64,000 nucleotides of DNA. It comes from Escherichia phage vB_EcoM-S1P5QW. The position numbers and the translations under genes were made by a program. Under the pieces are notes generated by a model. That model was not told the origin of the DNA and searched no databases. It saw only the letters and a list, made by a program, of their open reading frames with translations. Below, one piece after another: positions 1,581 through 55,308 of the stretch. The DNA lies in sequence record OL956808.1; one strand, 5' to 3'. The first letter of the stretch is position 1, and each line of letters begins with the position of its first letter.

Positions 1581-3092
1581 TTATAAATTAACTGTTTTCA
1601 TTACGTAATTAAATTTTTCATCTGCGTAGCGCTGAATACGATCAATGCCGTGTTTTAAAAGATAGTTCAAATGAACGTATTTCTTTTTCGTATTAGCAGA
1701 TTTTGGCTTAACACCGCAATCATCAATGAGGTCCCAGACCGTTGCGATTGTTTTAGAACCATGCTTACGTAATACGCGACCTATTGTTTGCAATACAATA
1801 ATTTTAGATTTAACACCGTGTGCTAAAACAACGTGATGCAGATTTTTAACTGAAATACCAGTAGAAAATACACCATAACTAGCTACTATAATTATTCCTT
1901 TACCGTTTTCAGCTAAAGTTTTCATTACATTGCGGGTTTCGGTATCAACTTCCCCTGATACGTAATAAACTTTATCGTATTCATTTTTAATTAAATCGAA
2001 AATAGCTTTACCGTGTGATACGTGTTTAAACATGACAAAAGCGTTTTCATCTTTTTGCGCAAGCTTAATAGCTAATTTAGCGATCCATTTATTTCTTTTA
2101 CTGAGTCCAGTAATAATTTTTATTTCTTCTTGGTAAGTTTTTCCCTTTAATTTAGTAGTGAACTCATCGGGATAGCGAAGAAAAATACTATTAATTTTTA
2201 ACTCAGTTACTTGTCCATCTTCCATTAATTTAGAAGTCGTTACTGGCTTAAATATTTCACCAAACATTCCAACATACTGCATGATATTAGCTTTGCCATC
2301 ACGCAATGAACCGGACAAACCAAATTTAAACATGCAGTTATTTAAACCTGATATGATAGATGAAATACTTTTTCCTGTAGCAAGATGACATTCATCATTC
2401 ATCATCATTCCAAACTGTGAGAACCATTCTTTTGGTTGTTTTACTACAGTTTGCCATGTACCAACAACGACTGGTGCATCATTTTTATATTTATCATCTT
2501 TTGATGCTCCACCGCCGATTTTCTTTATCATTGCATGACTGAATAAACGATAGTCAACAAAGTCATCAGCCATCTGAGTTGTTAAAGCAGTTGTTGGAAC
2601 AATGATAAGAATTTTACCTTCATAATTTTCCAAATAATACCGAGCAAGCAGAGCTTGAATTAACGATTTACCAGCGGATGTTGGAAGATTAAGAATTCTA
2701 CGACGATTAACTAATCCTTCGAACACTGCATCTTTTTGATACCAGTGTGGTTCAATTCTTTTATTTCCTGAATAGATTTCTAATTTAGAAAGCCATTCAT
2801 CAAAATCTTTTCTTGATAATTCTTCTTTTTCGTTAATCTGCGGGTCAATCCAGGCTTTATAGCCAAAGTTATCACAGAACTTTTTAATTTGCCCGACTAA
2901 GCCGAATGGAAGAAGGCGATTATAATCTAAAAGACGGATTCGTCCATCCCAGTGACCATATTTGTATTTCGGATTAAAACGATACCCTTCAGCTTCAAAG
3001 CTAAAGAAATCACGGAGTTCATGAAATGTACTTTCTTCACAATCAATTCTCACGTGACTAAAATCATAAAAATGTACTTTAATGTCAGTCAT
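1581..3092 (-). CDS. uvsW: UvsW DNA/RNA helicase (SF2)
   Basis: 503 aa; Walker A TSAGKS and DECH box; matches recalled T4 UvsW. Confidence 0.9.
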   Translation of the reverse strand: MTDIKVHFYDFSHVRIDCEESTFHELRDFFSFEAEGYRFNPKYKYGHWDGRIRLLDYNRLLPFGLVGQIKKFCDNFGYKAWIDPQINEKEELSRKDFDEWLSKLEIYSGNKRIEPHWYQKDAVFEGLVNRRRILNLPTSAGKSLIQALLARYYLENYEGKILIIVPTTALTTQMADDFVDYRLFSHAMIKKIGGGASKDDKYKNDAPVVVGTWQTVVKQPKEWFSQFGMMMNDECHLATGKSISSIISGLNNCMFKFGLSGSLRDGKANIMQYVGMFGEIFKPVTTSKLMEDGQVTELKINSIFLRYPDEFTTKLKGKTYQEEIKIITGLSKRNKWIAKLAIKLAQKDENAFVMFKHVSHGKAIFDLIKNEYDKVYYVSGEVDTETRNVMKTLAENGKGIIIVASYGVFSTGISVKNLHHVVLAHGVKSKIIVLQTIGRVLRKHGSKTIATVWDLIDDCGVKPKSANTKKKYVHLNYLLKHGIDRIQRYADEKFNYVMKTVNL

Positions 3093-3121
3093 GTCTAAAT
3101 ACCATGTAATAAATATATCTA

Positions 3122-3129
3122 TATTTATA
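3122..3129 (-). promoter_or_regulatory. late promoter for uvsW
   Basis: Plus-strand tatttata = minus-strand TATAAATA, about 30 nt upstream of uvsW ATG. Confidence 0.6.
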
Positions 3130-3142
3130 CTGAGGAAATATT

Positions 3143-3823
3143 ATGATAGATAAAGATTATATTGCAGAGCTGAAGGCTCTTGATGATAACAAAGAAGCTA
3201 AAGCTAAATTAGCTGAATATGCTGAACAGTTTGGTATAAAGGTCAAAAAGAATAAATCTTTTGATAATATCGTTGTTGATATTGAAGAAGCCCTCCAGAA
3301 GCTCGCTAGTGAACCTATGCCAGAGACTGATGGGTTATCTATTAAAGACTTAATTGATGCTGCTGATGCCGCAGACGGATTAAAATATGACGATGAAGAA
3401 GTCAATCTAGAGGCAGCACTTCTGATTGATTCTCCGGTTAAATCTGACATTAAAATTGAAGTAGTAGAAATGGATAAAATTCCTGAAAATACCGATGTTT
3501 TGATTGAAGATACTCCTTTTGTTGAAGAAAAATTCGAGCAAGCTGTAGCTGAGATTATTGAATCTGAAAAGCCGTCTGTATTTACTCTTCCGGAAAACTT
3601 TAGTCCGAATCTTCAGCTGATTGGAAAAAATCCAGGATTCTGCACTGTTCCTTGGTGGATTTACCAGTGGATTGCTGAAACTCCGGATTGGAAATCTCAC
3701 CCAACAAGTTTTGAACATGCGTCGGCACACCAAACTTTATTTAGCTTAATTTATTACATTAATCGCGACGGATCAGTTCTAATTCGTGAAACACGCAATT
3801 CTTCTTTCGTAACATTAAAATAA
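3143..3823 (+). CDS. inh: Inh, inhibitor of prohead protease gp21
   Basis: 226 aa, same length and position as T4 inh, next to hoc; gagga RBS. Confidence 0.75.
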   Translation: MIDKDYIAELKALDDNKEAKAKLAEYAEQFGIKVKKNKSFDNIVVDIEEALQKLASEPMPETDGLSIKDLIDAADAADGLKYDDEEVNLEAALLIDSPVKSDIKIEVVEMDKIPENTDVLIEDTPFVEEKFEQAVAEIIESEKPSVFTLPENFSPNLQLIGKNPGFCTVPWWIYQWIAETPDWKSHPTSFEHASAHQTLFSLIYYINRDGSVLIRETRNSSFVTLK

Positions 3824-50409: not shown

Positions 50410-50772
50410 ATGAAAGCATATCAAATTCTTGAAGGCACACATAAAGGTACTATTTATTTTGAAGATGGTATTCAAGCACGAATTATTGTCTCTAAAACCT
50501 TTAAAGAGGACTCTTTTGTAGACCCAGAAATTTTCTACGGTTTGCATGCCCGTGAAATTGAAATTGAGCCACAGCCTACAGTTAAAATTGAAGGTGGTCA
50601 ACACCTGAACGTTAACGTTCTGCGTCGTGAAACTCTGGAAGATGCAGTTAAGCATCCGGAAAAATATCCGCAGCTGACCATCCGTGTATCCGGTTATGCA
50701 GTTCGCTTTAACTCTCTGACTCCGGAACAGCAGCGCGACGTTATCGCTCGTACCTTTACTGAGAGTCTGTAA
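50410..50772 (+). CDS. autonomous glycyl radical cofactor, GrcA/YfiD-like
   Basis: 120 aa; C-terminal 60 aa contain glycyl-radical motif RVSGYAVRF and look identical to recalled E. coli GrcA C-terminus; 3' half has host-like GC-rich codons. Confidence 0.85.
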
Positions 50773-51530: not shown

Positions 51531-51539
51531 CTGTTTACT

Positions 51540-51569
51540 TTTCCTCTTGACTGTGGTATAATTTTTCTA
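51540..51569 (+). promoter_or_regulatory. early promoter upstream of regB
   Basis: GTTTAC, 18-nt spacer, -10 tggTATAAT; imperfect inverted repeat cctcttgactg/cagttaagagg. Confidence 0.6.
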
Positions 51570-51589: not shown

Positions 51590-52051
51590 ATGACTATCAA
51601 TACAGAAGTTTTTATCCGTCGAAATAAGCTTCGTCGTCACTTTGAGTCGGAGTTTCGTCAAATTAACAATGAGATTCGTGAGGCATCAAAAGCAGCAGGG
51701 GTCTCATCGTTTCATCTAAAATATTCTCAGCATCTTCTTGATCGTGCAATTCAACGGGAGATTGATGAGACATATGTTTTTGAATTATTCCATAAAATAA
51801 AAGACCATGTTTTAGAAGTTAATGAATTCCTGAGTATGCCTCCGCGTCCTGACATTGACGAGGATTTTATTGATGGGGTTGAATATCGTCCTGGACGTTT
51901 AGAAATCACAGATGGAAATCTTTGGCTTGGATTTACGGTTTGTAAGCCTAATGAGAAGTTCAAAAACCCGTCACTTCAATGCAGGATGGCAATTATCAAC
52001 AATCGTCGTTTACCAGGAAAGGCTTCTAAAGCAGTAATTAAAACTCAATGA
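51590..52051 (+). CDS. regB: RegB site-specific endoribonuclease
   Basis: 153 aa; MTINTEVFIRRNKLRRHFESEFRQ... matches recalled T4 RegB; own early promoter and gaggag RBS. Confidence 0.85.
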   Translation: MTINTEVFIRRNKLRRHFESEFRQINNEIREASKAAGVSSFHLKYSQHLLDRAIQREIDETYVFELFHKIKDHVLEVNEFLSMPPRPDIDEDFIDGVEYRPGRLEITDGNLWLGFTVCKPNEKFKNPSLQCRMAIINNRRLPGKASKAVIKTQ

Positions 52052-52058
52052 GGTAAGC

Positions 52059-52604
52059 ATGAGAAAAGCACTACTCGCTGGTCTATTGGCCATTTCAATG
52101 ATGGCACATAGCTCCGAGCATACTTTCAGTAATGTCCAACTCGATAACATGCGTTACGCGTATCAATTCGGGGAACAATTTTCTAAGGATGGAAAATATA
52201 AAACACACAAAAATATCCACAAGAGCGGATTAGGTCATATAATGGCTGCCATTTTATGGCAAGAAAGCTCTGGCGGAGTTAATTTAAAATCTAAACCAAA
52301 GCATCACGCCTACGGAATGTTCCAAAATTATTTGCCTACTATGCGAGCAAGAGTTAAGGAACTTGGTTATAATATGACCGATGCTGAAATAAAAAGAATG
52401 TTGAATAAACGGTCCAATTCAGCTTCCTGGGCGTACATTGAACTTTCTTATTGGTTAAATATACATAAGGGCGATATAAGAAAAGCAATATCCTCTTATA
52501 ATTCGGGATGGAATGTTAAAGCAGGTTCTAAATATGCTTCTGAAGTCCTAGAAAAGGCTAATTACCTTAAAAATAATAAACTTTTGGAAATAGTAAATGA
52601 CTAA
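52059..52604 (+). CDS. secreted lytic transglycosylase-like protein
   Basis: 181 aa; N-terminal signal peptide; SLT-like AILWQESSGG motif. Confidence 0.6.
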   Translation: MRKALLAGLLAISMMAHSSEHTFSNVQLDNMRYAYQFGEQFSKDGKYKTHKNIHKSGLGHIMAAILWQESSGGVNLKSKPKHHAYGMFQNYLPTMRARVKELGYNMTDAEIKRMLNKRSNSASWAYIELSYWLNIHKGDIRKAISSYNSGWNVKAGSKYASEVLEKANYLKNNKLLEIVND

Positions 52605-52938
52605 AATTTTGGTTTTATGTATAGGATTAATTTCATTTTCTGCGTTAGCAGATACATCATATACTGAAATTAGAGAGTATGTAAACCGTACTGCAGCGGA
52701 TTATTGCGGGAAAAATAAAGCATGCCAAGCTGAATTTGCGCAGAAATTAATATATGCATATAAAGACGGAGAAAGAGATAAATCAAGCAGATACAAAAAC
52801 GATACATTGTTAAAACGATATGCTAAAAAGTGGAATACCTTAGAATGTTCAGTTGCGGAGGAAAAAGATAAAGCCGCTTGTCATTCAATGGTTGACCGTT
52901 TGGTAGATTCTTATAATCGAGGATTGAGTACTAGATGA
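52597..52938 (+). CDS. secreted or lipoprotein-like small protein
   Basis: 113 aa; N-terminal signal peptide MTKILVLCIGLISFSALA; several Cys. Confidence 0.5.
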   Translation: MTKILVLCIGLISFSALADTSYTEIREYVNRTAADYCGKNKACQAEFAQKLIYAYKDGERDKSSRYKNDTLLKRYAKKWNTLECSVAEEKDKAACHSMVDRLVDSYNRGLSTR

Positions 52939-53414
52939 TTGTAAAATATATCAAGGGCGATATTGTCGCCCTCTTTCTTGAAGGTAATATTATTGCGCAT
53001 GGGTGTAACTGTTTTCATACAATGGGCAGTGGTGTAGCTGGTCAATTAGCAAGAGCCTATCCCAAAATTTTAGAAATAGATAAAACCACTACTGAGTACG
53101 GTTCTCGTGATAAATTAGGCGATATGTCTATTGTTTTTAAACATAAACCTAATGGTTTTGGCATATGTTATAACTTGTATACGCAATACGAACCAGGTCC
53201 TAATCTTGATTATGGTGCTTTAGTAAACTGCATGATAGAATTAAATCTACAGGCAGAAACCCTTTTGTTTAAACCAGTAATTTACATTCCACGCATAGGT
53301 TGTGGTATTGCTGGCGGCGATTGGGATAAGGTTTCTAAATTAATCGACATGTTTACTCCTGATATTGATTTAATAGTGGTGGATTATGAAAGTACATTAC
53401 CCACATCCGTTTGA
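52935..53414 (+). CDS. macrodomain-like protein (ADP-ribose binding/processing fold)
   Basis: 159 aa; Gly-rich motifs HGCNCFHTMGSGVAGQLA and RIGCGIAGGDW resembling macrodomain nucleotide-binding loops. Confidence 0.5.
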   Translation: MIVKYIKGDIVALFLEGNIIAHGCNCFHTMGSGVAGQLARAYPKILEIDKTTTEYGSRDKLGDMSIVFKHKPNGFGICYNLYTQYEPGPNLDYGALVNCMIELNLQAETLLFKPVIYIPRIGCGIAGGDWDKVSKLIDMFTPDIDLIVVDYESTLPTSV

Positions 53415-55014: not shown

Positions 55015-55308
55015 ATGGCCTTAAAAGCAACGGCACTTTTTGCCATGCTAGGATTGTCATTTGTTTTATCTCCATCGATTGAAGCGAATGTCGATCCTCA
55101 TTTTGATAAATTTATGGAATCTGGTATTAGGCACGTTTATACACTTTTTGAAAATAAAAGCGTAGAATCGTCTGAACAATTCTATAGTTTTATGAGAACG
55201 ACCTATAAAAATGACCCGTGCTCTTCTGATTTTGAATGTATAGAACGAGGCGCGGAGATGGCACAATCATACGCTAGAATTATGAACATTAAATTGGAGA
55301 CTGAATGA
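55015..55308 (+). CDS. rI: lysis inhibition regulator RI (antiholin)
   Basis: 97 aa; N-terminal signal-anchor MALKATALFAMLGLSFVLSPSIEA; matches recalled T4 RI. Confidence 0.85.
   Translation: MALKATALFAMLGLSFVLSPSIEANVDPHFDKFMESGIRHVYTLFENKSVESSEQFYSFMRTTYKNDPCSSDFECIERGAEMAQSYARIMNIKLETE

Follow-up and report, generated by a model that had tools for sequence, protein, structure and literature searches.

The evidence inclines modestly toward a reading in which genes vs.1 and vs, which lie next to each other in the 64,000-nucleotide (nt) stretch of Escherichia phage vB_EcoM-S1P5QW DNA analyzed here (sequence record OL956808.1; the whole stretch is termed the window), form a coconserved, coexpressed periplasmic module, with vs.1 encoding a putative exported lytic transglycosylase of glycoside hydrolase family 23 (GH23) and vs encoding a putative exported, disulfide-stapled helical partner. 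The original prediction, which was made from the letters of the window alone, had described two adjacent secreted proteins at positions 52059 to 52938. Two open reading frames (ORFs) were confirmed there on the plus strand, at positions 52059 to 52604 and 52597 to 52938, and what that prediction missed is that the pair corresponds to the named T4 genes vs.1 and vs. Because Vs is annotated as a valyl-tRNA synthetase (ValRS) modifier, the presence of a predicted signal peptide on this protein is noteworthy, and the paired conservation of the two genes together with the export signals of their products therefore conflicts with the cytoplasmic role given to Vs.

The window belongs to a T4-like (Tequatrovirus) genome, and the strand shown is the complement of the one used by convention for T4. 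The region of approximately 2 kb around the pair was 99.8% identical in DNA sequence to Shigella phage Sf22 and 95 to 99% identical to hundreds of T4-type phages. The first ORF codes for a 181-amino-acid precursor identical to T4 Vs.1 at every position (181/181; NP_049725/UniProt P13311), and the second codes for a 113-amino-acid precursor identical to T4 Vs (NP_049724/P13310, “valyl tRNA synthetase modifier”) at 112 of 115 aligned positions (97%). The sole difference from the T4 protein pair, a 2-residue deletion and one substitution, was confined to the c-region of the Vs leader just before the predicted cleavage site, where SASASA in T4 is replaced by SALA. The gene order regB-vs.1-vs-tk.4 was the same as in the annotated T4 record. 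The two coding sequences overlap by 8 nt (positions 52597 to 52604, plus strand; AAATGACTAA), and this location of the vs start inside the end of vs.1 suggests that translation of the two genes is coupled. A Shine-Dalgarno sequence, GAGG (positions 52049 to 52052, plus strand), precedes the vs.1 ATG by 6 nt and is marked as a potential ribosome binding site in deposit X04567. In that 1986 deposit, the pair was called only ORF 61.4 and ORF 60.9, with ORF 60.9 left unnamed. The genes, their names, and the SLT likeness of Vs.1 are already known; the last was published by Nolan et al. in 2006, citing an earlier PSI-BLAST match (PMC1524935).

Membership of Vs.1 in the SLT/GH23 family 1 lytic transglycosylases, which the original prediction had proposed on the basis of the motif AILWQESSGG (residues 64 to 73; positions 52248 to 52277), was supported by profile searches, by motif conservation, and by the predicted fold. 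The Pfam SLT profile (PF01464) matched residues 61 to 154, the predicted catalytic domain (positions 52239 to 52520, plus strand), with a score of 25.1 bits (gathering score, 21.3), and SLT matches at E values of up to 0.01 were found in 31 of 33 diverse Vs.1 relatives. Compared to the PHROGs database, Vs.1 was assigned to phrog_600 (E value, 2e-68). Family 1 lytic transglycosylases carry a Glu residue within an E-S motif, followed by G-L-M-Q (motif II) and A-Y-N-x-G (motif III). The corresponding motifs of Vs.1 were WQES, with E69-S70; GMFQ, at residues 86 to 89; and YNSG, at residues 147 to 150, preceded by S146. Across the 33 homologues, down to 40% identity, residues E69, G86, F88, Q89, Y147, N148, G150, and Y159 were invariant, and S70 was nearly so. 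Glu69, the predicted catalytic residue (codon at positions 52263 to 52265, plus strand), is located at the end of a predicted helix (residues 59 to 70) in the AlphaFold2 (AF2) model built from the 33-homologue alignment. The predicted local distance difference test score (pLDDT) of this model was 88.8, with values of approximately 56 for residues 1 to 20.

When the Vs.1 model was compared to solved structures with Foldseek, the top 20 Protein Data Bank (PDB) matches were all GH23 proteins or lytic transglycosylases (probability, 0.85 to 1.0; E value, 9e-3 to 0.3; template modeling score, 0.4 to 0.54). These matches included Pseudomonas aeruginosa MltD, a GH23 chitinase, goose-type lysozyme, Neisseria LtgA, Slt70, phi6 P5, and T7 gp16. 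Sequence by itself cannot tell a transglycosylase from a goose-type hydrolase, a distinction that is decided by product chemistry (1,6-anhydro-N-acetylmuramic acid). With GH23 family 1 (Slt70, MltD/Slt, and LtgA; PF01464), Vs.1 shares the ES, GxxQ, and YNxG motifs, a predicted lysozyme-like fold, and periplasmic location, which is predicted in the case of Vs.1. The phage protein differs in being much smaller, a 162-amino-acid single domain with a conserved N-terminal extension (residues 20 to 58), and in being only about 14 to 18% identical to these enzymes; furthermore, it comes from virulent phages, is expressed early, and is neither an endolysin nor a virion protein. A GH23-type fold is also present in the N-terminal domain of T7 gp16, in phi6 P5, and in lambda R, but these proteins act from the virion or via holin release, whereas Vs.1 has its own predicted Sec signal and is made early. 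T4 already has the gp5 and gpe lysozymes for the jobs of entry and lysis. The Vs.1 family was found in 2045 phage records (tblastn), which belonged to Straboviridae and also to Felixounavirus and Kuttervirus. A tblastn search for plasmid (type IV secretion system-type) relatives of Vs.1 returned no match, and NCBIfam contained no model matching either Vs.1 or Vs.

Both proteins begin with residues arranged as predicted Sec signal peptides. A heuristic filter was applied in which an uncharged core had to span 10 or more residues, begin within the first 8 residues, and be preceded by a basic residue; a mean hydropathy of ≥2 and small residues at positions −3 and −1 were also required. Only Vs.1, Vs, and RI passed this filter among 89 plus-strand gene proxies of the window. 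RI serves as a positive control for the filter because its signal peptide has been shown experimentally to be cleavable (PMC8385771). The predicted leader of Vs.1 (residues 1 to 18, MRKALLAGLLAISMMAHS, followed by SE; positions 52059 to 52112, plus strand) has two basic residues, a 13-residue uncharged core, and A-H-S at positions −3 to −1, and that of Vs (residues 1 to 18, MTKILVLCIGLISFSALA, followed by DT; positions 52597 to 52650, plus strand) has one basic residue, a 15-residue core, and A-L-A at the same positions. Cleavage at these sites would yield a mature Vs.1 of about 18.7 kDa (isoelectric point [pI], 9.7) with the N-terminal peptide SEHTFSNVQLDNMR and would convert the 12.9-kDa Vs precursor to a mature form of 95 amino acids (11.0 kDa; pI 8.9; positions 52651 to 52935, plus strand) with the N-terminal peptide DTSYTEIR.

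These leaders were conserved. A leader was present in nearly all Vs.1 homologues examined and in all full-length ones, including those from Felixounavirus, Kuttervirus, an Aeromonas phage, and a Pseudotevenvirus, and the few rows that lacked one were all truncated or mis-started ORF calls. The Vs homologues comprised 46 unique sequences from related loci, and each of the 44 that were full length had an N-terminal export signal. In Vs of the CC31/Karamvirus type (L038, positions 3049 to 3375; L039, L042, and L053; MKKLFVLLVVFALSGC), a lipobox, L-S-G-C, replaces the AXA site, and these proteins are therefore predicted to be lipoproteins; because a lipobox is meaningful only for an exported protein, this subgroup also counts toward export. 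The predicted signal-peptide layout of both proteins, as proposed in the original prediction, was thereby confirmed by sequence comparison as a real feature rather than a chance one. Two variant possibilities for Vs of the window were considered and rejected. As a candidate lipoprotein, it failed the lipobox test, since L-V-L-C8 has Leu at position −1 and C8 is not conserved. A leaderless cytoplasmic isoform produced by internal initiation was rejected on the grounds that in-frame ATG, GTG, and TTG codons are absent between vs codons 6 and 70. The insolubility of His-tagged full-length Vs expressed in the cytoplasm (PMC8076793) weakly supports export. As a predicted exported protein, Vs would not share the compartment in which binding to cytoplasmic ValRS takes place.

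The Vs family was narrow. Vs was assigned to phrog_1256 (E value, 5e-40; “valyl tRNA synthetase modifier”), and its homologues carry Pfam PF26829 in precomputed matches. A word-indexed search yielded 6 clusters, and an exhaustive HMMER search for distant cellular relatives over 1.8 billion representatives yielded only 8 small phage-type clusters. By tblastn, 795 phage records contained Vs, and a CC31-type query led to a further set. In the AF2 model, Vs consists of four helices (residues 20 to 37, 41 to 60, 69 to 84, and 89 to 111), with pLDDT values of about 88 to 93 in the mature part and 46 to 48 in the leader (residues 1 to 18). Vs had been described from the window as a small Cys-containing protein, a description that held: of its five Cys residues, the leader contains C8, which is not conserved, and the mature part contains C37, C43, C84, and C95, all of which are conserved. 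The spacings C-x5/6-C and C-x8/10-C were found in every full-length homologue (n = 44), and the pairs C37/C43 and C84/C95 are located at the two helix-hairpin junctions of the model. Shortened Vs variants of 80 to 85 amino acids were also observed (L023, positions 3041 to 3298; P0006; and P0087), in which the first Cys pair is missing or the N terminus is unrelated, and vs may therefore be decaying or remodeled in certain lineages.

Compared to PDB structures, the Vs model gave no fold match with an E value of <1; compared to predicted viral structures (BFVD), it matched only its own family; and Vs had no match to PDB sequences below an E value of 0.1. Similarity to Spackle (gp61.3) and RI, two small early T4 proteins that are exported, helical, and disulfide bonded, was limited to general architecture, namely, a cleavable leader (predicted in the case of Vs), a helical mature protein of approximately 10 kDa, and a Cys pair near a helix junction (PMC7677548 and PMC8385771). 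Spackle and RI act in the periplasm, the same site that is predicted for Vs (PMC7677548 and PMC8385771). Their partners, gp5 lysozyme for Spackle and holin T for RI, are known, whereas a partner for Vs is only proposed. Two identifications of Vs were rejected. As a Spackle-, Ivy-, MliC-, or Pli-like inhibitor, it found none of these proteins among the listed fold matches and no PDB sequence match, and as an RI paralogue or RI-type antiholin, it shared with RI only a 5-residue chance match in BLASTP (E value, 0.54).

The two genes were closely linked across phages. IMG/VR was scanned with the Vs.1 family, and Vs was sought with a hidden Markov model (HMM) in the 49 loci retrieved (43 to 100% identity). 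vs was located directly downstream of vs.1 in 49/49 loci; in 48 loci, the distance between the two genes was −8 to +3 nt, and in the remaining one, the ORF was split. A reverse scan with Vs identified 22 loci, and the contigs of all 22 had been retrieved with Vs.1 as well. Vs diverges faster than Vs.1, their mean identities to the window proteins being 47.5% and 69.8%, respectively. In phage Lw1 (Pseudotevenvirus), one ORF is located between vs.1 and vs. Among the 49 loci, at least 18 (L017 to L019, L035, L036, L038 to L042, L044, L048, and L051 to L056; for example, L038, positions 3372 to 3791, and L054, positions 3312 to 3731) contain a third gene, phrog_4957 (130 to 148 amino acids; unknown function), the start of which lies 4 nt ahead of the vs stop codon. 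The phrog_4957 product has a predicted signal peptide, with cleavage between NA and WEKLPGYP, and two conserved Cys residues; no phrog_4957 homologue was found in the window. In many genera, vs would thus sit between two other secreted-protein genes, in a vs.1-vs-X cluster whose products are all predicted to be exported. In Aeromonas phage SW69-9 (L004, positions 2356 to 2796), the vs slot between vs.1 and tk.4 holds a 75-amino-acid ORF and an ORF for a 146-amino-acid predicted lipoprotein (leader, MKKSIATLIAIGMYGC). The Vs HMM matched neither of these ORFs, and the slot may represent a nonhomologous replacement of vs by another exported protein.

Published T4 data were examined for expression and fitness. 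In a dual-omics data set, both vs and vs.1 were classed as “early RNA, middle protein” (PMC9697503 supplement), in agreement with the early expression that had been anticipated from the window. Transposon insertion counts were taken from the HIDEN-SEQ preprint (10.1101/2025.11.20.689424; Extended Data Table 6, sheets S8 and S9). In the LB control, mean insertion counts were 26.6 for vs and 22.6 for vs.1, compared to 178.6 for regB, 289.6 for tk.4, 652 for vs.3, and 767 for tk.3. Even in LB, the pair had approximately 10-fold fewer transposon reads than neighboring nonessential genes. vs was the T4 gene most depleted in M9-glucose versus LB, a result that was confirmed with a knockout, with its count dropping to 5.0 in M9 (log2 fold change, −2.19; adjusted P = 0), and vs.1 dropped to 11.9 (log2 fold change, −0.87; P = 0.0055; adjusted P = 0.155). 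In clinical strain CFE299, significant depletion was found for vs.1 (−1.20; adjusted P = 0.015) and not for vs, although the change in vs was similar in size (−1.04). Insertions in rI, sp, and imm were not depleted and behaved as neutral. vs.1 is not discussed in the preprint, and the term is absent from its main text. Based on these literature data, vs and vs.1 have a common fitness cost that their neighbors lack.

The original prediction had suggested that the pair might act in lysis inhibition or superinfection exclusion, sensing or blocking a superinfecting phage or tuning the timing of lysis together with RI. This role is considered very improbable, and no evidence in support of it was found. 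A predicted periplasmic location and early expression would be compatible with it, a wall-cutting enzyme could affect the efficiency of lysis, and rI is indeed nearby, at positions 55015 to 55308, approximately 2.1 kb downstream of the pair. The proximity is not conserved, however: seven genes lie between, among them tk.4, tk.3 to tk.1, tk, and rI.1, and the conserved neighbors of the pair are regB and tk.4 rather than rI. Vs has no similarity to RI, insertions in rI, sp, and imm were neutral in the same libraries in which vs and vs.1 were depleted, and no r-type phenotype for vs or vs.1 was reported in the literature found.

The depletion of vs in minimal medium also bears on the classical view of this gene, in which Vs is the tau factor that modifies host ValRS in the cytoplasm, its N terminus is unused for export or mediates only partial export, Vs.1 is unrelated, and the position of vs beside vs.1 reflects nothing but the tight packing of early genes. 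That view is regarded as unlikely. It agrees with the annotation in T4 and in about 800 phage records, with literature statements that Vs binds valyl-tRNA ligase, with the specific impairment of the vs knockout on minimal glucose medium, where amino acid supply is limiting, and with the general overlap of T4 early genes. It has no use, however, for a leader with an AXA site or lipobox in 44/44 full-length homologues or for two conserved Cys pairs, neither of which would serve a cytoplasmic protein, and no internal start able to give a leaderless Vs is present. It is further opposed by the secreted-protein genes on both sides of vs in many genera and by the observation that vs.1 insertions mimic vs insertions. 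Size can be read in both directions. A basic mature Vs of 11.0 kDa would fit the classical factor, which Muller and Marchin reportedly placed at approximately 10 kDa in 1977, but the mature form is nearer to this size than the 12.9-kDa precursor is; if the identification is right and the reported size is that of a processed form, Vs would have passed leader peptidase on the periplasmic side.

The fitness data likewise bear on an arrangement of enzyme and inhibitor, in which Vs would be a periplasmic immunity protein that holds back Vs.1 or another muramidase and prevents premature wall damage. Analogies are provided by Spackle, which acts on gp5 lysozyme, and by Ivy and PliG, which act on lysozymes; in addition, an exported lytic enzyme gene is tightly coupled to a gene for a small exported Cys-containing protein, Vs evolves faster than Vs.1, and loss of vs in M9 was more harmful than loss of vs.1. 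Moreover, T4 e mutants do not lyse, and the activity of Vs.1 must therefore be limited in vivo. Under this arrangement, vs.1 insertions should be neutral. In LB, however, they were found as rarely as those in vs, and their depletion in CFE299 was significant. These data disfavor a simple enzyme-antidote relation, with possible polarity of the vs.1 insertions as a caveat. The structural comparisons, in which no inhibitor of the Spackle, Ivy, MliC, or Pli type was among the matches listed, and the occurrence of Vs.1 relatives without Vs in other phage families also argue against such an inhibitor, which is judged improbable, less so than a role in lysis inhibition.

In the periplasmic module favored here, vs.1 and vs would be transcribed with regB and tk.4 and translated in a coupled manner. 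The Sec signal peptide of Vs.1 would be cleaved, and the protein would be released into the periplasm, where it would act as a small soluble GH23 (SLT family 1) enzyme that cuts the glycan strands of peptidoglycan, with Glu69 as the catalytic acid. Vs would be exported too, its leader being removed at Ala18-Asp19, and the mature product would be an 11-kDa four-helix protein in which disulfides C37-C43 and C84-C95 form in the oxidizing periplasm. Together, the two proteins may act as one envelope-remodeling module during early and middle infection, in which Vs would serve Vs.1 as a partner, a regulator, or a targeting subunit rather than as a simple antidote. A third secreted protein would join the module in several related genera, and growth may benefit from the module, more so in minimal medium. 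Of this picture, sequence and comparison establish the identity of the genes, the family to which each product belongs, the conservation of export signals and cysteines, and the coupling of the genes; export and processing, disulfides, enzymatic activity, the partnership, and the physiological role are inferred, and the fitness phenotype comes from the literature.

Several points weigh against this module. All databases name Vs a valyl-tRNA synthetase modifier, and a T4 factor of approximately 10 kDa was reportedly found bound to cytoplasmic valyl-tRNA synthetase in work of the 1970s by McClain, Marchin, and Neidhardt and in that of Muller and Marchin in 1977. The M9 phenotype of vs would be just as expected of a protein that acts on an aminoacyl-tRNA synthetase, and vs.1 insertions could account for part of the common phenotype through polar effects on vs, to which vs.1 is coupled. 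Felixounavirus and Kuttervirus carry a vs.1 homologue without a neighboring vs, and Vs.1 therefore does not need Vs. The Vs.1 family profile had no match to PDB sequences, and the Foldseek E values were modest. A stronger statement, in which Vs does not modify ValRS but is really an exported partner of Vs.1 within a two- or three-protein secreted module, is a tentative possibility, held with less than even confidence. Three accounts of the conflict can be given: the ORF assignment may be wrong; the association with ValRS may arise after cell breakage or be secondary; or Vs may partition to the cytoplasm despite its leader. No discussion of this compartment paradox was found in the accessible literature.

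Other features of the locus were in keeping with the T4 gene map. The conserved upstream neighbor, regB (positions 51590 to 52051, plus strand), was annotated as encoding an endoribonuclease (Pfam REGB_T4, 3.6e-69, and T4 annotation). A sigma-70-type promoter-like site (positions 51534 to 51562, plus strand; TTTACT, 17-nt spacer, and TATAAT, with an upstream TG forming an extended −10 element), which had 10 of 12 matches in a consensus scan, is located upstream of regB and is a candidate early promoter for the regB-vs.1-vs-tk.4 unit. The downstream neighbor, tk.4 (positions 52935 to 53414, plus strand), was predicted to encode a macrodomain protein (Pfam Macro, 6e-8), and its ATG overlaps the vs stop codon by 4 nt (ATGA); the T4 orthologue has been named AdfM, an anti-DarTG2 factor, in the HIDEN-SEQ preprint (10.1101/2025.11.20.689424). 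A perfect 8-bp GC-rich hairpin, AGGGCGATATTGTCGCCCT, was observed at positions 52954 to 52972, within tk.4 codons 7 to 13 and 16 nt after the vs stop codon (free energy, −12.6 kcal/mol; z score, −2.5). The exact 19-mer of this hairpin was present in 26 related loci, including phages whose Vs is only 45 to 68% identical, and its retention despite the divergence of Vs suggests a constraint at the nucleic acid level; it may be a terminator or an RNA stability or processing element, for example. Farther upstream, the vs.6 homologue (positions 50410 to 50772) has a C-terminal glycyl radical motif, RVSGYAVRF, and is annotated in T4 as a GrcA-like autonomous glycyl radical cofactor.

A secreted transglycosylase as such is an ordinary finding among textbook T4 ORFs. 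The point of interest is the role of a conserved, early, predicted Sec-exported lytic transglycosylase that is found in more than 2,000 phage records across Straboviridae, Felixounavirus, and Kuttervirus and whose putative partner, Vs, shows all the hallmarks of a periplasmic protein but carries the annotation of a cytoplasmic ValRS modifier, the purpose of which has been asked since the 1960s. If Vs is an exported partner of Vs.1, then either it was an error to equate ORF 60.9 with the vs locus of genetics, or the “modification” of ValRS arises only when periplasmic Vs encounters the synthetase after cell breakage. The defect that vs mutants show in minimal medium would in that case come from the envelope and not from translation. 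Knowing the location of Vs would explain the minimal-medium phenotype or overturn a long-standing annotation.

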